From NCBI GenBank assembly GCA_963771355.1, contig CAVYTA010000006.1, positions 2,368,001-2,432,000 of the forward strand: 64,000 nucleotides of DNA, in the 5' to 3' direction. The stretch's first letter is position 1. Every line of letters starts with the position of its first letter. This stretch comes from an uncultured Candidatus Rokubacteria bacterium. GTDB taxonomy: Bacteria > Methylomirabilota > Methylomirabilia > Rokubacteriales > CSP1-6. The notes under the pieces are model-generated. The model searched no databases and was not told the DNA's origin. It was given only the letters and a program-made list of their open reading frames with translations. Of this stretch, positions 1-11,726 are shown piece after piece. Made by a program: the position numbers and the translations under genes.

Positions 1-1
1 C

Positions 2-586
2 GGCCTCGACGAGGCCTATGCCATCCCGTCCGAGGAGGCGATGAAGCTGGCGCTCCGCACCCAGCAGATCATCGCCCACGAGACGCGGGTGCCCCAGGTG
101 ATCGACCCGCTGGGCGGCTCCTGGTACGTGGAGTCGCTCACCAACCAGATCGAGGCCAAGGTCTTCGAGCTGCTCGCCAAGGTGGACGCCATGGGCGGCA
201 CGATCAAGGCCATCGAGGAAGGCTGGTTCCAGCGCGAGATCGCGGACTCCGCTTACGAGACGGCGCGGCGCCGGGCCTCCGGCGAGCAGCCGCTGATCGG
301 CGTGAACATGTTCGCGGAGCCGCCCGCCCCGGTGCCGGTGCCCATCCACAAGGTGGCCGCCGACGTGGAGGCGCGCCAGGTCGCCCGGGTCAAGGCGGTG
401 CGCGCCCGCCGCGACAGCGCCCGCGTCGCCGCACTGCTGGAGCAGCTGGCCGCCGAGGCGCGCGACCCCGCGGTGAATCTCATGCCCGTGACCATAGAGC
501 TGGTGCGAGCCCGCGCGACCATGGGGGAGATCGTGGCCCGCCTGCGCGAGGTCTTCGGCCACTACGTCGAGACGCCCATCTTCTGA
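2..586 (+). CDS. Acyl-CoA mutase large (substrate-binding) subunit, C-terminal part; HcmA/IcmA/split-MCM type (5' truncated by window)
   Basis: Frame open from base 2: GLDEAYAIPSEEAMKLALRTQQIIAHE, DPLGGSWYVE, IGVN. Ends FGHYVETPIF with no DxHxxG B12-binding domain. Confidence 0.9.
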   Translation, partial: GLDEAYAIPSEEAMKLALRTQQIIAHETRVPQVIDPLGGSWYVESLTNQIEAKVFELLAKVDAMGGTIKAIEEGWFQREIADSAYETARRRASGEQPLIGVNMFAEPPAPVPVPIHKVAADVEARQVARVKAVRARRDSARVAALLEQLAAEARDPAVNLMPVTIELVRARATMGEIVARLREVFGHYVETPIF

Positions 587-598
587 GGAGCCGCCGCC

Positions 599-1747
599 AT
601 GCCCGCGCCCCGTCCCTACGTCGTGGCCTTCCCCGACGCCGACCTCGCCGATCTGCATGACCGTCTCGGCCGCACGCGCTTCCCCGACGAGCCGCCCGAG
701 GCGGGCTGGCGCTTCGGTGCCGACCTCGCCTACGTGAAGTCCCTGGCCGCCTACTGGCGCGAGCACTACGACTGGCGGCGCTGGGAGGCGGAGCTCAATC
801 GCTTCCGTCAATTCGTCGCCCCGGTGGCAGGCATCGACCTCCACTTCATCCACGAGGAGGGCCGGGGGCCGAAGCCGATGCCCCTCCTCCTCTCGCACGG
901 CTGGCCGGGATCGGTGTGGGAGTTCCACAAGATCCTCCCCCTGCTCACCGATCCCGCGCGGTTCGGCGGCGATCCCGCCGATGCCTTCACGGTGGTGGCG
1001 CCGTCGCTCCCCGGCTACGGTTTCTCCTTCGCACCCGGGCAGGCACGGCTCGGCGTGTCCGAGATCGCGGACGTCTTCGCCAGCCTCATGCGCGACACCC
1101 TCGGCTACTCGCGCTACGGGGCACAGGGCGGCGACTGGGGCTGCTTCATCACCACCGTGCTCGGCCACCGCCGGCCCCAGGACGTGGCCGGCATCCACCT
1201 GAACCTCCTTCCCCTGCGGCGCGACGTGGCGCGGCCGGACCAGCCCACCGACGAGGAGAAGAAGTACCTCCAGGAACTGGGCCACTGGCTGCGCGAGGAG
1301 ACGGGGTATCAGTCGATCCAGGGGACCAAGCCGCAGACGCTCGCCTACGGCCTCACCGACTCCCCGGTGGGACTGGCGGCCTGGATCGTGGAGAAGTTCC
1401 GGAGCTGGAGCGACTGCGACGGGGAGGTCGAGCGGCGCTTCAGCAAGGATGATCTCTTGACCAACATCACCATCTACTGGCTGACCGGCGCGATCGGCTC
1501 TTCCTTCTGGCCCTACTATGCCCGCATCCACGATGGATGGCCGCTCCCCGACGGCGTCCGCATCGAGGTGCCGACGGGCTACGCGGCGTTTCCCAAGGAG
1601 ATCGTCCGCCCGCCGCGCGCGTGGGCGGAAAAGGTCTTCAACATCCAGCGCTGGACGGTGATGCCGGCGGGCGGCCACTTCGCGGCGATGGAGGAGCCCG
1701 AGGCGCTCGCGGGCGAGATCAGGGAGTTCTTTCGTCCCTTACGCTGA
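599..1747 (+). CDS. Epoxide hydrolase (EHN family, alpha/beta hydrolase)
   Basis: HGWPGS, GGDWG nucleophile motif, GGHFAAME; GAGGAG SD upstream. Confidence 0.92.
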   Translation: MPAPRPYVVAFPDADLADLHDRLGRTRFPDEPPEAGWRFGADLAYVKSLAAYWREHYDWRRWEAELNRFRQFVAPVAGIDLHFIHEEGRGPKPMPLLLSHGWPGSVWEFHKILPLLTDPARFGGDPADAFTVVAPSLPGYGFSFAPGQARLGVSEIADVFASLMRDTLGYSRYGAQGGDWGCFITTVLGHRRPQDVAGIHLNLLPLRRDVARPDQPTDEEKKYLQELGHWLREETGYQSIQGTKPQTLAYGLTDSPVGLAAWIVEKFRSWSDCDGEVERRFSKDDLLTNITIYWLTGAIGSSFWPYYARIHDGWPLPDGVRIEVPTGYAAFPKEIVRPPRAWAEKVFNIQRWTVMPAGGHFAAMEEPEALAGEIREFFRPLR

Positions 1748-1797
1748 TATACTCCCCCCCGCCGGCCCCAGCACACGCGCCGGCAGGAGGCCCCACC

Positions 1798-3114
1798 ATG
1801 CGCCACACCCGCTTCGTGACGTCGTTCCTCGCCGCGGTGCTGCTGATCGCCGCCCCCCTCGCCTTCGCCGACGAGACGTGCAACTCCCCCTACATGGGCA
1901 ATCTCATCAAGGGACAGGAAGACTACGTCTACGTCTGGACGCTCGGGGTGAAGGGCCTGGGCGACGGCTTCGACAAGCTCGTCACCATCGACGCCAATCC
2001 CGCCTCCGCGCAGTACGGCAAGGTCATCCACAAGGTCTCCGTGGGCGGGCGCGGTGAGGCGCATCACATGGGCTTCACCGACGACCGCCGCTTTCTCTGG
2101 GCGGGCGGGCTCGACGACAGCAAGATCTTCATCTTCGACGTGGGGACGGATCCCGCCAAGCCCAAGATCGTGAGGCGCATCCTCGACTTCGCCAGCAAGA
2201 CCGGCTTCGTGGGCCCGCACACCTTCTACGCCATGCCCGGCCGCATGCTCGTGCAGGGCCTGTCCAACACCAAGGACAATGGCGGCGCCACCGGCTTCGC
2301 CGTCTACAGCAACCGCGGCGAGCTCATCAACGTGCAGGCCATGCCCACCGACAAGGGCGGCGATGGCTACGGCTACGACCTCGCCATCAATCCGCAGAAG
2401 AACGTGATGCTCTCCTCGAGCTTCACCGGGCGCGCCAACTACATGCGCGAGCTGGGCAAGCTGGTGGGCGACGCCGAGGCCATGAAGAAGTTCGGCAGCA
2501 CCATGGTGGTGTGGGACCTCAAGGCGCTCACCCCGAAGAACGTGCTCAGCGTGCCCGGGGCCCCGCTGGAGATCCGCTGGTCCCTCCACGAGGGCGACAA
2601 CTGGGCCATCACCGCGGCCGCCCTCACCTCGAAGCTCTGGCTGGTGAAGCAGGACGCGGCGGGCGAGTGGCAGGCCAAGGACGTTGCCACCATCGGCGAC
2701 CCCGCCAAGATCCCGCTCCCGGTGGACATCAGCATCAGCCGCGACGGCACCGGCCTCTGGGTGAACACCTTCATGGACGGCAAGACCCGCTACTTCGACC
2801 TCACCAATCCGGAGCAGCCGAAGCAGACCTACGAGAAGGTTACCGGCAAGCAGGTCAACATGATCTCGCAGAGCTGGGACGGTAAGCGCGTGTACATCGC
2901 CTCCTCGCTGCTGGCGAACTGGGACAAGGGCGGCGACGACAACGAGCAGTTCGTCCGCGCGTTCAAGTGGGACGGCAAGGAGCTCACGCCCGCCTTCTCG
3001 GTGGACTTCAACAAGGAGAAGCTCGGGCGCGCGCACCACATGAAGTTCGGCTCGCGGGCCACGCGGCCGGCCTACACCCCGACGCGCCCCGTGAGCTTCG
3101 AGCCCACCCGGTGA
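1798..3114 (+). CDS. mtoX: Secreted selenium-binding protein 56 / methanethiol oxidase (MtoX)-like protein
   Basis: AGGAGG SD then ATG 1798; signal peptide ending AFA-DETCNSPYM; GQEDYVYVWTLG, EAHH, GPHT, GYGYD, SQSWDGKR, LANWD, RAHHM. Confidence 0.88.
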   Translation: MRHTRFVTSFLAAVLLIAAPLAFADETCNSPYMGNLIKGQEDYVYVWTLGVKGLGDGFDKLVTIDANPASAQYGKVIHKVSVGGRGEAHHMGFTDDRRFLWAGGLDDSKIFIFDVGTDPAKPKIVRRILDFASKTGFVGPHTFYAMPGRMLVQGLSNTKDNGGATGFAVYSNRGELINVQAMPTDKGGDGYGYDLAINPQKNVMLSSSFTGRANYMRELGKLVGDAEAMKKFGSTMVVWDLKALTPKNVLSVPGAPLEIRWSLHEGDNWAITAAALTSKLWLVKQDAAGEWQAKDVATIGDPAKIPLPVDISISRDGTGLWVNTFMDGKTRYFDLTNPEQPKQTYEKVTGKQVNMISQSWDGKRVYIASSLLANWDKGGDDNEQFVRAFKWDGKELTPAFSVDFNKEKLGRAHHMKFGSRATRPAYTPTRPVSFEPTR

Positions 3115-3797
3115 GGAAACGCCCGCCCGGGGCGGTCGCGGGCGCGGCGCTCGCCGTGCTCGTCCTCGCCGGCGCCGCGCCCGCGCACCCGCCGCCGCCG
3201 GCGCCGGATCCGCCCGCGGTGATGGATTTCGTGCCGCCCGCCCCCGGCACCTACCGCCTCTACGACATCATGCGGGCGCCCGACGGCGCCGTGCTCGACC
3301 TCGAGGGCCGGCGGGCGCGCCTGGCCCGCTTCACCACAGGCAAGATCACCGTACTCTCCTTCATCTACACCGGCTGCGCGGACGCGCGCGGATGCCCGCT
3401 CGCCTATCAGGTCTTCCACGCCATGCACGACCGGCTGCGCGCGACCCCCGCCCTGCGCGACCGCGTCCGTCTCGTCACGCTGAGCTTCGATCCCGTACAC
3501 GACACGCCCGCCGTCATGCGGCGCTATGCGAACGGCGTCCCCTCCGAGGGGGCACCGGGCGTCGAGTGGACCTTCCTCACCACCCCTTCGCCGCGTGCGC
3601 TCTTACCCATCCTGGACGGCTTCGGCCAGGACGTGCAGGTGGAGCCCCGGCCGCGCGGCGGCCAGGCTCCGCGTCTCGGTCACGTGCTGAAGGTCTTCCT
3701 CATCGACGCGCGCGGGATGGTCCGCGAGATCTATACCACCTCCTTCCTCTTCCCCGACGTCGTGCTGAACGACATCGAGACGCTGCGCCGCGAATGA
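3111..3797 (+). CDS. SCO1/SenC family copper chaperone
   Basis: GTG overlaps the upstream TGA; signal-like N-terminus; FIYTGCADARGCP, SFDPVHDTP, GHVLKVFLID. Confidence 0.88.
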   Translation: MRKRPPGAVAGAALAVLVLAGAAPAHPPPPAPDPPAVMDFVPPAPGTYRLYDIMRAPDGAVLDLEGRRARLARFTTGKITVLSFIYTGCADARGCPLAYQVFHAMHDRLRATPALRDRVRLVTLSFDPVHDTPAVMRRYANGVPSEGAPGVEWTFLTTPSPRALLPILDGFGQDVQVEPRPRGGQAPRLGHVLKVFLIDARGMVREIYTTSFLFPDVVLNDIETLRRE

Positions 3798-3807
3798 GGC
3801 CGGGCTC

Positions 3808-5880
3808 ATGCCGTCACCACGCACCCGGAAGCGCTGGCGGGCAAGCTGTCTCCTGGCGGCGGCGGTCGCCCTCGTGCTCTCCGTCGGCACCGCCCTCGAC
3901 GTCCTCGCCACCGTCCGCGCCCAGGCCCTCGACCTCCTCTTCGTGACCCGCCCCACGCGGGTGGCCGAGTCCACCCTGATCGTGGGAATCGACCAGCGGA
4001 GCTACCAGGCGCTGCTCCCCCGCTACGGCCCGCTCTCCGCCTGGCCCCGGAGCCTCTATGCGCGGGCGCTGGACGCGCTGGAGGCCGCCGGCCCGCGGGT
4101 AGTGGCCTTCGCCGTCTTCTTCGACGCCCCCCGGGCGGAGGACGGCGAGCTCACCGCGGCGATGCGCCGGGCCGGCAATGTCGTGGTCCCCGCGGTGGCC
4201 CAGCGGCCGCTGGGATTCAGCTCGCGGCCGGGCGTCGCCCAGGAGTTCGACACCTTCGTGCGCCCGGTGCCCGCCATTCGCGCCGCCGCCGCAGCCGAGG
4301 GCGCTGCCAATATCACCACCGCCCGCGACAGCGTGGTGCGCGGCCTGCCCCTCCTGCTGCAGGCGGAGGGGGAGCGGCTGCCCAGCTTCGCGCTGACGGT
4401 GGTGGCGCGTCACGCGCGCCGGCCCGCGGTGCTGGACGCCGAGCCCGCGCCCGGAGTCGTCTACGCGGCGGGGCGCGCCATCCCGCTCGCCGAGCGCAAC
4501 ACCATGCTGATCAACTTTCTCGGTCCGCCCTCCGAGCCCGGCGGCCGCGGGCCCTTCCGCATCCTGTCCTTCGTGGACGTGCTGGAGGGAAACTTCGCCC
4601 CTGCGCTCGTGCGCGACCGCGTCGTGCTCATCGGCCCCACCATCCAGGGCGTGGACGAGCATCCCACCCCGACCACCAGCGACACGCGGATGTGGGGGGT
4701 CGAGATCCTCGCCAACGCGGTGGAGACCATCCTCCACCAGCACTATCTCGCGCCCCTGCCCCGGAGCGCGACCATCGGCGCCATCGCCATGCTCGCCCTG
4801 GTCGGCGCCAGCCTCGCCGCGTTCTGGCGTCCCGTGATCGCGGGGCTCGCCGCCCTCGGCGTCCTTGCCGTCTACGTGATGCTGGCCACCGCGCTCTTCG
4901 AGGCGGGCCACCCACTGGACCTCGTCTACCCGCCCGCCGCCCTCGTGCTCGCCTTCGGCGCCACCCTCATCTACCGGGTGGTCTTCGACGAGGCCGAGCA
5001 GCGCGTGCTGCAGGACGCGATGGCGCGCTATCTCTCCCCCACCGTGAGCCGGTGGGTGCTCGAGGATCCCGACCGCCTCCGGCTGGGAGGCGAGCGGCGC
5101 GAGATGACCGTCCTCTTCAGTGATCTCCGGCGCTTCACCACCGTCGTGCACGAGCTGCCCCCCGAAGTGGTGGTCTCCCTCCTGAATCTCTATCGCGGCG
5201 ACATGACGGAGCACGTGTTCGCCGAGGACGGCGTGCTCTCTCAATACGCGGGAGATGCGATCGAGGCGTTCTGGAACGCGCCCATGGACCAGCCCGACCA
5301 CGCGCGGCGCGCGTGCGCGACCGCCCTCGAGATGACCGCGGCGCTCGCGCATCTGCAGCCCGAGTTCGCGCGGCGCGGGTGGGCAGGGCTCGACATGGCG
5401 GTGGGGATCAACACGGGCCCCACGGTGGTCGGGAACGTGGGCTCGCGTGCCCGGCTTGCCTATACCGCGGTGGGGGACGCGGTCAACGTGGCGGCCCGGC
5501 TCGAGGGCCTCTCCAAGGAGTACGGGGTGCGCGTGGTGATCGGGGAGGCGACCCGGGAGGCGGCGGGATCCGCCTTCGAGTACCGCTTCCTCGATGTGGT
5601 GGCGGTGAAGGGGCGGAACACCCCCGTCACCGTGTACGAGCTACTGGGCCGCGCGGGGAGCCTCACGCCCGACGCCGCCGCCCTGCTCGCCCGCTATCAC
5701 GAGGGCATCGGGCTGTATCGCGGCCGCCGGTGGCGAGAGGCGGTCGCGCTCTTCGATGGACTCGCCGCGGAGGCGCCCGACGACGGGCCCGTCGCCCTCT
5801 ACCGCCGGCGGAGCCACGACCTCCTCGCCGACCCTCCGCCGCCCGACTGGGACGGTGTGTACGTCGCGCTGACCAAGTAG
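3808..5880 (+). CDS. CHASE2-domain class III adenylate/guanylate cyclase
   Basis: IVGIDQRS, WPRS, GVEILANAVETI (CHASE2); three TM helices; LFSDLRRFT, GDAIEAFWNAP, GDAVNVAARLE, VKGR; WDGV tail. Confidence 0.92.
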   Translation: MPSPRTRKRWRASCLLAAAVALVLSVGTALDVLATVRAQALDLLFVTRPTRVAESTLIVGIDQRSYQALLPRYGPLSAWPRSLYARALDALEAAGPRVVAFAVFFDAPRAEDGELTAAMRRAGNVVVPAVAQRPLGFSSRPGVAQEFDTFVRPVPAIRAAAAAEGAANITTARDSVVRGLPLLLQAEGERLPSFALTVVARHARRPAVLDAEPAPGVVYAAGRAIPLAERNTMLINFLGPPSEPGGRGPFRILSFVDVLEGNFAPALVRDRVVLIGPTIQGVDEHPTPTTSDTRMWGVEILANAVETILHQHYLAPLPRSATIGAIAMLALVGASLAAFWRPVIAGLAALGVLAVYVMLATALFEAGHPLDLVYPPAALVLAFGATLIYRVVFDEAEQRVLQDAMARYLSPTVSRWVLEDPDRLRLGGERREMTVLFSDLRRFTTVVHELPPEVVVSLLNLYRGDMTEHVFAEDGVLSQYAGDAIEAFWNAPMDQPDHARRACATALEMTAALAHLQPEFARRGWAGLDMAVGINTGPTVVGNVGSRARLAYTAVGDAVNVAARLEGLSKEYGVRVVIGEATREAAGSAFEYRFLDVVAVKGRNTPVTVYELLGRAGSLTPDAAALLARYHEGIGLYRGRRWREAVALFDGLAAEAPDDGPVALYRRRSHDLLADPPPPDWDGVYVALTK

Positions 5881-5907
5881 TCGGGCCGGGCGCGCGGGAG
5901 TGGCGCC

Positions 5908-6990
5908 CTAGCGCGCCGTCCAGGTGGCCAGCTCGGCGGGCGACAGCACGATGGTCGTCGGGATGCCGGCGGGCACCGGCTTCAGCCGCTCCAGCCAGCC
6001 CTCCACCACGCGCGCGGCCCGTGGATCGGGCCGCTCGAACTCGCCGAAGCGCTGCACGATGTCGCCGCCCCGCTGCTCACCCTCTCGCAGGCGCCCGCGC
6101 CGATCGTCCCAGTACACGGCATTGCCCTTGAAGCGGCCCACCACGCTCACCCGGTAGTCGCCGTCGCCCGTCGCCGCGAGCACGAGCCGGTAGGGCCCGG
6201 CGAGGCCGGCGGGCACCTCGATGACCCGGCGCCCGTGCCGCGTCCCGGTGAGCGAGCCGAACACCTGGTTCACCTCGACGCCGGGGGCGACGAAGCCGGC
6301 CGCGCGCACGCCGTCGGGCATGATGAGGAGCGGCAAGACCGGGCCCTCGACGGTGACCTCGAGCGTGCTCGCGTTCACCGAGAAGGGCTCGGTGGTCTCG
6401 GTGCCGTCGTAGCCGAGCGTGCCCTTCTCGCCCGCCCGGAGCAACGTGCGCAGAGTGCCGCGCGCGTCGCGCAGCTCCACCTCGCCGGCACGCGTCCAGC
6501 TCACGAAGCTGCCGTCCGGGCGGGCCTCCGCGCCGATGAGTCCGTCGCGCGCGGTGGCCGAGTTCGCGTTGGACTGCAGCGTGACGGTACCGCGTCCGCC
6601 CAGCCATCCGGCCACCCGCGCCCACACCGTGCCGGCGAGGATGAGGATGCGGACCCGGGAGGGTCCGGGGCCGGCGTTCGCTTCCCGCACGGTGACGTCC
6701 GAGCCCGGCTCGACGACCACCGTGGTGCCGTCCAGGAAGGTGATCAGCGCGCGCCCACCGGGGGAGGTGACCACTCGGTCGCCCTCGGCGAGATCCGACC
6801 CGCTCGTCGCCCGCGCGAGCGGCCCGCCGGTAGCACGCGCATGCGCGACCGGCGCCGAGAGCACGGTCAGCGTGGCGGCGGTGACCGGCCGGATCGACGG
6901 CGACTGCGCGGACACGGCGGTGACGAACGGCAGGACGAACAGGAGGACGACGACGAGGGCGACCGCTCCCACAACCTTTCGTTCTGCCAT
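5908..6990 (-). CDS. FecR-domain exported protein
   Basis: Signal peptide (MAERKVVGAVALVVVLL...); LAEGDRVVT...ALITFLDGTTVVVEPGS pattern of FecR-like domains. The start could instead be ATG 7020. Confidence 0.75.
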   Translation of the reverse strand: MAERKVVGAVALVVVLLFVLPFVTAVSAQSPSIRPVTAATLTVLSAPVAHARATGGPLARATSGSDLAEGDRVVTSPGGRALITFLDGTTVVVEPGSDVTVREANAGPGPSRVRILILAGTVWARVAGWLGGRGTVTLQSNANSATARDGLIGAEARPDGSFVSWTRAGEVELRDARGTLRTLLRAGEKGTLGYDGTETTEPFSVNASTLEVTVEGPVLPLLIMPDGVRAAGFVAPGVEVNQVFGSLTGTRHGRRVIEVPAGLAGPYRLVLAATGDGDYRVSVVGRFKGNAVYWDDRRGRLREGEQRGGDIVQRFGEFERPDPRAARVVEGWLERLKPVPAGIPTTIVLSPAELATWTAR

Positions 6991-7191
6991 GGCTCTTGGT
7001 ACCTCCAGCGACGTTGACATGACACCCCGCGAGGGAGCAAGGCATGTGCCAGTGCTCCGCGGCGGCTACGTCCCCTCCGCGTCACCCTTCCCACGAGCGA
7101 TCCCTCGACCGAGGGCGGGCAAGACGCCCCGGCGAGCGGGACGCCGGCGGCAGGCTGCCCGATGGAGGAGCCGTTGTGTATGATCGACGCC

Positions 7192-8110
7192 ATGAAGCTC
7201 GGATTCGCGTTGCCGGTGGCGGGCGCCTGGGCCACACCCGAGAACCAGGTACGTGTCGCCCAGCACGCCGAGCGGCTCGGCTACTCGGGCCTCTGGGTGC
7301 TCCAGCGGCTCCTCTACGCGCTCGAGCCCAAGGGTGCCTACCCGCCCATGCCCAATCAACCCTGGCCCAAGATGTTCGAGAGCGTGGTGGATCCAATCGT
7401 GGCGCTGGCCTACGTGGCCGGGCAGACCTCGCGCATCCGGCTCGGCACCAGCGTGCTCATCATGCCGTACTACTCACCCATCCTCCTCGCCAAGCAGCTC
7501 GCCACGCTCGATCAGGTCTCCGGCGGGCGGCTCGATGTGGGACTGGGGCTGGGCTGGTCCGAGGACGAGTTCGACGCCTCCGGGGTTTCGTTCAAGCAGC
7601 GCGGCCGGCGCGGCGACGAGTTCCTTCGCTGCCTCAAGACGATCTGGACAGAGGACGTGGTGGAGTTCCATGGCGACTTCTATCACGTGCCGCGCTCCCG
7701 CGTGCTGCCCAAGCCCCGCCAGCAGCCGCACCCGCCCATCACCATCGGCGGCTACAGCGAGGTGGTGATCAATCGCGCGGTGAACCTCGGCGACGGCTTC
7801 AACGGAGGCAACATGCCGCTGGCGGAGGTGCGCCCGCTCATCGCGCGCATCCGCGCCGCGGCGGACAAGGCCGGGCGCGATCCCGCGGGCCTGCACGTGG
7901 TCTGCCGCGGGAGTTCACGCGTGCACGAGACGGCCGCAGGGGCCCGGCCGCCGCGCGCTGTTCGGGACCCTCGGGGAGATCCGCGAGGACATCCAGCGCT
8001 ACGCGGAGGCGGGCCTCACCGAGCTGTTCCTCGAGGGCAACTTCACCCTCGCCGACTCGTCCCATCGAGCGCGCGCTCGAGCTGATGGAGCAGCTCGCTC
8101 CCGCCCGCGG
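7192..8110 (+). CDS. LLM-class (putative F420-dependent) oxidoreductase; 3' end frameshifted, end approximate
   Basis: IRLGTSVL, LAKQLATLDQVSGGRLDVGLGLGW, PKPRQQPHPPI. C-terminus (LFGTLGEIREDIQRYAEAGLTELFLE, IERALELMEQL) continues in other frames after ~7940. Confidence 0.85.
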
Positions 8111-10081: not shown

Positions 10082-10108
10082 GTGATGCCGCGCCGGCGCC
10101 CGCTCCCC

Positions 10109-11726
10109 TTACTTGTCCAGCCAGACCTTGTCGTAGTGGACTTCGAACTCCGCGTTGTACGTGTACCCCTTCATCCACGGCTGCGCGACCATGTAGAAGG
10201 GCGAGCCCGAGATATCGTTCCAGTACATGTTCTCCACCAAGAACTCCTGGAATCTCCTTCGCGAGGGCCTTGCGCTTCGGCACGTCCATCTCGCTCGCGT
10301 AGCGAGCGTAGTAGCTCGTCCACCCGCTTGTCGTTGTGGCGCGGATGGCTCCAGGTCGACTGTGCATGTTGGAGAGATAGCCATTGCTGTCGAGCGTGAT
10401 CAGGGACAGGAGATCCTCGACGTACATGTCCCACGGGCCGTCCTGGAGGGTGGTGTTCATCCAGGAGACCTTGTCCACGAGGCGGATGTTCGCGGTGACG
10501 CCGATGCGGGTCATCTGCTCCTTGATGACGGTGGCGATGACGTTGAACACGCTCTTCTCGGTGTCGGCCATCAGCTCGAAGGTCAGGGGCTTCGCGGGGC
10601 CGTAGCCGGCTTCGGCGAGCAGCGCCTTCGCCTTGGCCTGATCGTACGGGCACATGCTGTTGACGTCCACCGTGTCCAGCGTGCCGGGCGGGTCCATCCC
10701 CACCCAGGGCGTCGCCTTGCCCTTGAAGGCGATCTTCACGATCTCCTGCCGATCGATGCCGTAGCAGCCGATCGCCTTGCGCACCCGGAGATCGCCGAAG
10801 ATCGGGTGCGGGGCCCGCTCCTTGGACATGGGCTTGCCGTCCTTGGGGATGGTCACCTTCATCGCCGCCAGCATCGGCGTCGTTTCCTTGCCCGTCAAGA
10901 TCTGACGGCGTTCGGGATCTGCGCCTTCAAGGTGTCCACGTGCTCCGGCGAGAACGAGGCGATGAAGTCGATCTCCCCGGCCTTGAAGGCCGCCATCTCG
11001 GTGACGGGGTCCTTGATCACGCGGATGACGACCTGGTCGAGGTACGGCAGGCCCGGCACGAAGTACTTGTCGAAGCGGTCCATCACGAGCTGGCTTCCCT
11101 TCACCCACTCGACGAACTTGAACGGGCCGCATCCCACGATCGAGCCCGGCTTCCCCTGCTTGCGGTCCTCCAGGGTGAACTTCTGGGTAGCGGTCGGGGA
11201 GTAGAAGGACCAGTCCGGTGCGGTAGGCGGCGAGCATGTGGAGCAAGAAGCCGTAGGGCTGCTTGAGGCGGATCTGCACGGAGAGGGGATCGAGCACCTC
11301 GACGCTGTGGATCGACTCGTAGAAGGTCCGCATGCCCGACTTGGTGGCGGGGTCCATCAGGCGGTCGATGCTGAACTTGACGGCGGCGGCGTCCACCGGG
11401 GTGCCGTCGTGGAAGAGGACGTTCTTCCTGAGCTTGAAGTTGTAGAGCAGGCCGTCGGACGTCATGGTCCACGACTCCGCGGCATCGCCCACGAACTTCC
11501 CGTCGGGCGTGATGTTGACCAGCCCGCACCCGACGTTCATGGCCACCCACATCATTTCGTAGCCGGGCGCGGTGTGGAAATCGAGGTGGGCGATCTCGTT
11601 CCCGTAGGAGACGCGAAGGGTGCCGCCGCGTTTGGGCGCCTGCGCGTCGGCGGGGGCCGGCAGCGCGATGATCCAGGCCAGGACGAGCGGGACGAGGAGA
11701 CGAATCCAAAGGGACCATGGACGCAT
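10109..11726 (-). CDS. ABC transporter substrate-binding protein family 5 (several frameshifts)
   Basis: AGGGAGGA SD; signal peptide; PKRGGTL, FHDGTP, GCGPFKF, YLDQV, VRKAI. Pieces split over frames at ~11200, ~10905 and ~10250-10370. Confidence 0.88.

Follow-up and report, generated by a model that had tools for sequence, protein, structure and literature searches.

The mtoX gene of an uncultured Candidatus Rokubacteria bacterium, located in a stretch of 64 000 nucleotides (hereafter the window; GenBank assembly GCA_963771355.1, contig CAVYTA010000006.1, positions 2 368 001–2 432 000 of the forward strand), encodes a methanethiol oxidase-like protein with arginine at site 212, the place of one of the two tryptophans proposed to form a tryptophan tryptophylquinone (TTQ) cofactor. 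The genome has no gene for a MauG-type di-heme partner, the proposed maturase of this cofactor. MtoX of the window is a real, selected and widespread variant; the arginine itself is ordinary, and the useful part is the family pattern to which it belongs. The link between tryptophan 212 and the partner is one-way: presence of the partner implies the tryptophan, not the reverse. On the basis of the sequence comparisons, we consider it rather likely that this MtoX, with its SCO copper chaperone and no partner, would act in the periplasm with copper alone, oxidizing methanethiol or comparable small thiols.

Tryptophan 212 and the di-heme partner in the mtoX family

The mtoX frame is open throughout from ATG 1798 to TGA 3114 (438 aa). 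Its product scores 738.3 bits with the NCBIfam model NF052453 (MthilOxMtoX), above the equivalog cut-off of 650, and a genome-wide search found mtoX as the only gene of the SBP56 family. The ratio of non-synonymous to synonymous substitution rates (dN/dS) against eight relatives is 0.13–0.25, which indicates purifying selection.

Residues were placed by full-length pairwise alignment with MtoX of Ruegeria pomeroyi DSS-3 (RpMtoX or RpMTO; SPOA0269, WP_011242048.1, from the plasmid record NC_006569), which is 58–59% identical to the window protein; the alignment has one 11-residue insertion before site 212. R212 (SSFTG-R) falls on Ruegeria Trp223 (SSFTG-W), W375 on Trp386, and H89, H90, H141 and H413 on His88, His89, His141 and His424. 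According to Cao et al. (PMC10936201), Trp223 and Trp386 are the TTQ precursors and the four histidines the copper ligands of the Ruegeria enzyme. The initial annotation, made from the letters alone, had given the same six positions, including Arg212 with its codon CGC at 2431, and all of them stand on the 438-aa frame, as does its tryptophan-to-arginine register. Its Hyphomicrobium numbering is borne out in part: His89/90/140/412 are given in the main text of Eyice et al. (PMC5739008), from which Trp211 and Trp374 are absent.

The arginine codon is genuine and not a miscall, as had also been claimed. Four DNA runs, each from a different study, gave contigs that cover CGC with 0–1 differences over 421–812 bases, and no alternative letter occurs at 2431–2433 among the matches listed (40 further ones lie beyond these). 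Arginine is found at this site in 42 of 121 proteins (the query and 120 homologues; a regular-expression tally with one mis-hit). Relatives encode it 13 times by CGG, one step from TGG, and 16 times by CGC (raw counts, duplicates included).

For the family survey, 290 mtoX genes were extracted, 17 identical duplicates were dropped and the query was added, giving a set of 274. Representatives of 50% identity clusters, which were mostly fragments and came with no gene context, did not enter it. The partner was scored as present when the first 4 kb downstream encoded, in the same orientation, a match of at least 90 bits to the Ruegeria di-heme protein, and as absent when at least 1400 bases downstream contained no match; 27 genes with too little DNA (20 with tryptophan, seven with other residues) were excluded, leaving 247. 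Tryptophan occupies site 212 in 109 of the 110 genes with an adjacent partner, the last one having leucine, and in only 31 of the 137 without. The 106 non-Trp genes of the latter group have ten different residues (35 Tyr, 28 Arg, 25 Lys, five His, four Phe, three Ser, two Ile, two Ala, one Asn and one Leu). Non-Trp genes form 15 separate clades, and SCO adjoins all 114 of them. The expectation that loss of this tryptophan tracks absence of the partner across genomes thus holds; the related idea of a joint loss of tryptophan and maturase is supported by the family-wide coupling, but not as a symmetrical event, 31 partner-less genes having kept the tryptophan.

In the lone case of leucine with a partner (L031), the neighbouring di-heme protein is shorter behind heme 2, with 28 residues against 55–63 in all 62 Trp-linked partners aligned; it lacks the insert of about 30 residues that these 62 share, and its inter-heme motif is different too. 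Another unusual locus (L307, G483:C41:10025-12752) has two tandem mtoX genes before SCO and the partner, the second with tryptophan at both 209 and 212 (SSWTGW).

In an evenly drawn set of 802 genomes from two proteobacterial classes, 40 had a match and 38 genes were examined. All four non-Trp genes lack the partner, both adjacent and genome-wide (best match below 200 bits). Among the 34 Trp genes, it is adjacent in 29 and elsewhere in the genome in three (527–567 bits), and two lie near contig ends. Within the window's own class (251 genomes), a full-strength partner (>520 bits) is present in five genomes and split over two contigs in one more; the five mtoX genes examined from these six genomes all have tryptophan.

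The genome of the window, assembled to 99.77% completeness, was searched for a partner in three ways. The family PF03150 had no match in it (the control was positive in four of 14 genomes). With a profile built from 63 di-heme proteins linked to mtoX, only a 26-bit fragment containing a stop was retrieved. The motif PYxH[DN]G was found in none of the 12 long open reading frames with two or more CxxCH, that is, no MauG-type protein is encoded. The partner is likewise missing from all seven genomes of the same genus. No replacement gene family common to the non-Trp loci was found beyond SCO: the largest other cluster covers 18 of 126 loci, in clusters of open reading frames that were not annotated singly. 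Nor was a shared replacement maturase seen near these loci.

Kinship was taken into account with a FastTree tree built without columns 209–216. Parsimony places one change at site 212 on partner-bearing branches (total length 14.8) and 28 on partner-less branches (14.2). The site ranks second among 350 variable columns, with a binomial p of 4e-8 when branches are counted as independent; the best column in the opposite direction reaches 5e-4. The query is nested in a supported clade of 23 partner-less genes, four of which still have tryptophan, itself inside a partner-less clade of 68 genes. Between proteins that are 80–95% identical, site 212 switches among Arg, His, Lys, Tyr and Trp. Tryptophan has been kept at 31 of the 137 partner-less loci, among them those of the query's four closest Trp-bearing relatives, none with an adjacent partner; the partner was thus probably lost first and the site relaxed afterwards. 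Arg212, being one of ten replacement residues, would reflect relaxed constraint and not a new chemistry or substrate. The tight link constitutes, at the level of sequence, the first comparative support for an action of the partner on Trp212.

A putative copper-only thiol oxidase

The proposed metal ligands are invariant across the 274 genes regardless of the partner (table 1). The AlphaFold2 model of the window protein (mean predicted local distance difference test score, pLDDT, of 90) has 28 strands, and its best match among solved structures is 2ECE, with a template modelling (TM) score of 0.82. The strands make up seven blades, read from strand order, and H89/90, H141, D194, E258 and H413 each lie at the start of an A strand, which in the model places the ligands at the channel mouth. 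The equivalence of Asp194 and Glu258 to human SELENBP1 residues was inferred by way of SELENBP1-type proteins, not from the human sequence itself.

The nine relaxed sites most strongly linked to the partner (161, 212, 213, 106, 231, 218, 374, 107 and 223) are all found in B–C loops, which account for 74 of 396 positions; neighbouring sites in this clustering are not independent. Sites 212 and 375 belong to the B–C loops of blades 4 and 7, respectively. In the standard propeller topology, B–C loops are on the same face as the metal site. The relaxed loops would fit a surface of contact with the partner.

In the mechanism that we favour, MtoX would be exported by the Sec pathway and loaded with copper by SCO. 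Copper would be held at the propeller mouth by His89/90/141/413 together with Asp194 and Glu258, and the thiol would attach to copper, to Cys28 through a mixed disulfide, or to both. Oxidation by O2 would then proceed as it does in SELENBP1 and RdMTO, to an aldehyde and either sulfide or sulfane sulfur, with no Trp–Trp quinone involved. The partner gene would have been lost first, after which its surface (106, 161, 212, 213, 218, 231 and 374) drifted, Arg212 being a near-neutral replacement.

A cofactor-free copper route exists in the family, since recombinant SELENBP1 and RdMTO are active with copper and RpMtoX is active alone in Escherichia coli. Recombinant SELENBP1 (PMC10362175) and RdMTO (PMC13603461) produce H2S, H2O2 and formaldehyde and need only copper. 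E. coli expressing RpMtoX by itself degraded methanethiol in a Cys28-dependent manner, with sulfane sulfur as a product (PMC10936201). With regard to this cysteine, two Trp-type mtoX genes (L323 and L324) have alanine for Cys28; in their genomes, another mtoX copy lies at a distance of 16 kb, and there are two partner-like genes.

The window protein shares with Ruegeria MtoX the signal peptide layout, the DETC start, Cys28, the four histidines, the equivalent of Trp386 and a downstream SCO gene (SPOA0270 in Ruegeria). It differs in having arginine for Trp223 and asparagine for histidine at 161, and in having neither a di-heme gene (SPOA0271 in Ruegeria) nor a neighbouring gene for an IclR regulator or a formaldehyde dehydrogenase. 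MtoX of Hyphomicrobium sp. VS (PMC5739008), compared by description, has the same His89/90/140/412 pattern, periplasmic processing site and SCO neighbour, but its operon includes a mauG-like gene, and a TTQ of the composition proposed there cannot form in the window protein. With SELENBP1, SEMO-1 and RdMTO (PMC10362175, PMC13603461) it has in common the SBP56 propeller and the HH, His, Asp and Glu ligands, at an identity of only about 25–29%. SELENBP1-type proteins are marked by HxxH, the S-E-W tryptophan (at the position of F209, with proline at 212), a C-terminal cysteine and the lack of a signal peptide; the window protein has GPHTF, SSFTG, the single Cys28 and a signal peptide. The bacterial SELENBP1-type proteins compared have no SCO neighbour either, unlike window MtoX.

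Several points weigh against this reading or reduce the force of the comparisons behind it. The survey sample is biased: 80 loci were chosen by likeness to the query and 80 by likeness to RpMtoX, and one seed pattern contained the tryptophan. The parsimony test assumes independent branches and relies on the FastTree tree, on which the partner state changes only 8–15 times. An independent-pairs sign test fell short of significance in each of three data sets; in the full set, five to seven supported pairs gave on average 3.4 concordant and 0.0 opposite cases (median p 0.25). In these comparisons the direction of the coupling is consistent, with few independent partner losses sampled. Five non-Trp genomes have an unlinked, more distant di-heme protein at 329–355 bits, taken as a paralogue on the score gap alone. 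The activity of RpMtoX in E. coli was modest, no H2O2 was found and copper was not controlled (PMC10936201). Lastly, the genome encodes neither Fae nor a SoxB scoring above cut-off, so that a downstream pathway is not evident. These two results, and the single pyrroloquinoline quinone (PQQ) alcohol dehydrogenase above cut-off, are uninformative on the substrate.

The initial annotation had left open a thiol oxidase without TTQ (copper-only or with a single-Trp quinone) or an enzyme with another substrate. The copper-only form is the best reading; the other two found no positive support. A shift of the partner-less copper enzyme to another substrate, such as thiols that are larger or charged, or a different sulfur compound, with the loops reshaping the entrance, is unlikely. 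It would agree with the location of all relaxed sites on loops whose predicted orientation is towards the mouth of the active site, with Arg or Lys in 53 of the 106 non-Trp cases, and with the lack of Fae in the genome and of clustered methylotrophy or sulfur genes at non-Trp loci. The alternation of Arg, His, Lys, Tyr and Trp between close relatives fits drift better than a specificity residue, the catalytic core and Cys28 are unchanged, and characterized members of the family already take several alkyl thiols (PMC13603461).

It is quite improbable that copper and O2 still turn W375 into a cofactor (a single-Trp quinone or a cross-link with another residue) when the partner is missing, in the way that topaquinone (TPQ) and lysine tyrosylquinone (LTQ) self-process. 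Autocatalytic copper-dependent quinones do exist (PMC11951088), and W375 is kept in 272 of the 274 genes and in most SELENBP1-type proteins. However, the ten different residues at site 212 cannot all cross-link, the literature consulted demonstrates no quinone in any family member, and a sister family with 34–41% identity keeps SCO and mostly all the His, Asp, Glu and Cys residues yet has methionine or isoleucine at 375 (15 of 15 without tryptophan).

This sister family (L340–L353 and L359, from Methylomirabilia genomes) lacks both proposed TTQ tryptophans, with Tyr, Phe, Leu, Arg or Lys near 212. HH, the last histidine and the cysteine are kept, Asp194 and Glu258 are present in 12 of 16, SCO is adjacent in most, and no di-heme match was seen at these loci. 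At L345:3429-5919 (minus strand), and similarly in L344, L352 and L353, there is a tandem pair in which one copy has no Asp and Glu ligands (HPYET/HVYES, PLATRW); the pair is possibly a heteromer or includes a non-catalytic subunit. In-frame TGA codons of the sister MtoX-like group were considered as selenocysteine codons and rejected: they are ordinary stops after the last strand.

That mtoX is a decaying or inactive remnant left by loss of the maturase is very improbable: the proposed cofactor residue and the proposed maturase are indeed both gone, but the open frame, the low dN/dS, the invariant ligands, the SCO gene at every non-Trp locus and the 68-gene partner-less clade around the query all oppose it. 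An assembly error at the arginine codon, or a partner gene elsewhere in the genome, is hardly credible: other genes of the window look frameshifted and some Trp-type genomes keep the partner unlinked, yet the codon recurs in contigs of four studies, and the three genome searches and the seven congeneric genomes were negative.

The proposed TTQ and the nature of the partner

In Eyice et al. (PMC5739008), the TTQ was inferred from the mauG-like neighbour, from tryptophans of 2ECE said to be conserved across domains and from the total mass, and was not demonstrated directly. Three of our observations sit badly with it: W375 does not relax when the partner is lost; pairwise, multiple and profile–profile alignments all place the S-E-W tryptophan of SELENBP1-type proteins on F209, with proline at 212; and, by model score, the partner is closer to MbnH than to MauG and under the cut-off of each.

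The Ruegeria partner reaches 227 bits with the MbnH model TIGR04039 (cut-off 362.85) and 196 with the MauG model TIGR03791 (cut-off 443.85). Among solved structures, 6e1c (‘di-heme enzyme’), which we take to be MbnH, matches it with 138 bits over the full length, against 86–92 for MauG entries. The partner has histidine at the inter-heme Trp position of canonical peroxidases (FHDGR in 84 of 106). The mtoX-linked di-heme proteins have an insert of about 30 residues after the second heme motif (62 of 63), this histidine for the inter-heme tryptophan, and an invariant Tyr307; they look like a separate subfamily of the bacterial cytochrome c peroxidase (bCcP)/MauG family.

On these three counts, the comparisons cast doubt on TTQ in the MtoX family. 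It is also possible that TTQ does form and that W375 has a structural role in addition. MbnH converts one tryptophan of MbnP to kynurenine in a copper site that contains histidine (PMC11951088), and the site that covaries most strongly with the partner is a histidine (161). More generally, the kynurenine copper sites of MbnH–MbnP, MopE and CorA (PMC11951088) combine a bCcP/MauG-family di-heme enzyme with a neighbouring copper protein whose single tryptophan it oxidizes, which recalls the mtoX partner. These systems differ from MtoX in the fold of the target, and the likeness concerns the partner-bearing relatives, not the window protein. A speculative possibility, and a doubtful one, is that MtoX never had a TTQ: a distinct, MbnH-like partner would dock on the active face and oxidize Trp211/223 alone. 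The product, kynurenine for instance, would form an accessory copper site together with His161 and Asp106/Asp218. Such an optional module would have been dropped repeatedly, and proteins of the window type would be natural knock-outs, the minimal copper-only enzyme of soil bacteria.

The mtoX gene is counted in metagenomes as a marker of methanethiol oxidation. The TTQ has been restated from 2018 onwards with no direct proof. A large branch of the family has no partner and is common among soil genomes of the Rokubacteria type; its existence means that the proposed TTQ tryptophan is dispensable for a selected protein with intact ligands. Matched natural sets are available (tryptophan with partner, tryptophan without, non-Trp without), together with a short list of co-varying residues. 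Two questions thereby become testable: the role of the di-heme partner, and whether partner-less mtoX counts as a capacity for methanethiol oxidation. A Trp-less, mauG-less MtoX branch was not found described in the literature searched, which lacked most subscription papers; the legend of Fig. 2 in Eyice et al. (‘SCO1/SenC and/or MauG’; PMC5739008) suggests that their Table S7 may list mauG-less mtoX loci.

Features and neighbourhood of the window gene

The features of the locus are reported in table 1. The predicted mature start, DETCNSPY, is similar to the sequenced N-terminus of the purified Hyphomicrobium enzyme (PMC5739008).

Table 1. Features of the mtoX locus of the window, with the evidence for each; fractions refer to the 274-gene set unless stated otherwise.
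Feature	Position	Strand	Evidence or remark
Ribosome-binding site AGGAGG	1785..1790	+	7 nt upstream of ATG; from sequence
mtoX, 438 aa, SBP56-family seven-bladed beta-propeller	1798..3114	+	NF052453, PF05694, model, fold match, dN/dS
Putative Sec signal peptide ending AFA	1798..1869	+	predicted by eye from sequence
Cys28, equivalent to RpMTO Cys28 required for activity (PMC10936201)	1879..1881	+	alignment; Cys in 270/274
His89, His90, proposed copper ligands	2062..2067	+	each 274/274; blade 2
His141, proposed copper ligand	2218..2220	+	274/274
Asn161, relaxing together with 212	2278..2280	+	His in 104/110 partner-bearing MtoX; 3 vs 36 parsimony changes
Asp194, likely counterpart of SELENBP1 copper ligand Asp189	2377..2379	+	274/274; aligns with YDFW Asp of SELENBP1-type proteins
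Phe209, aligned with S-E-W Trp of SELENBP1-type proteins and 2ECE	2422..2424	+	alignments
Arg212 (CGC), replacing proposed TTQ Trp (RpMtoX Trp223)	2431..2433	+	alignment; contigs
Glu258, likely counterpart of SELENBP1 Glu252	2569..2571	+	273/274, one gap; equivalence from alignments
Trp375, second proposed TTQ Trp, kept	2920..2922	+	272/274, partner present or not
His413, proposed copper ligand	3034..3036	+	271/274
SCO1/SenC copper chaperone; GTG start overlaps mtoX TGA	3111..3797	+	PF02630, 39 bits (cut-off 22.8); Cys-x5-Cys-Pro at 3375-3398
CHASE2 adenylate/guanylate cyclase, at usual di-heme gene position	3808..5880	+	Pfam

The initial annotation had described SCO as overlapping mtoX and a cyclase as following in place of mauG, and both are as it stated. 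The SCO protein is 44.5% identical to that of Ruegeria and has a dN/dS of 0.13–0.45 against eight relatives. The usual spacing of the SCO motif is Cys-x3-Cys; the Cys-x5-Cys-Pro form of the window occurs in 254 of 267 mtoX-linked SCO proteins. For the cyclase, a match at the same position was found in just three close relatives (75–85% identity) and as four more distant matches of 35%, among all loci collected. The cyclase was considered as a substitute for mauG and rejected, being local context and not part of the module.

A scan of positions 1–7300 for promoters and terminators gave nothing beyond chance. Contigs from RNA libraries in four runs match parts of mtoX at 100% over 151–298 bases; such contigs cannot show transcription. 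The sequencing runs that contain the stretch are mostly from soil and rhizosphere, and the nearest named relatives of the protein are labelled Candidatus Methylomirabilota or Rokuibacteriota.

Further downstream, a luciferase-like monooxygenase gene (7162-8085, plus strand) and a gene for an ABC solute-binding protein (about 10100-11720, minus strand) have apparent mid-gene frame shifts, which suggest assembly indels or real frameshifts nearby. Upstream of mtoX, positions 2-1747 comprise, on the same strand, the 3′ end of a mutase-like gene (read from its translation) and an epoxide hydrolase gene, in an order kept in one close relative only.

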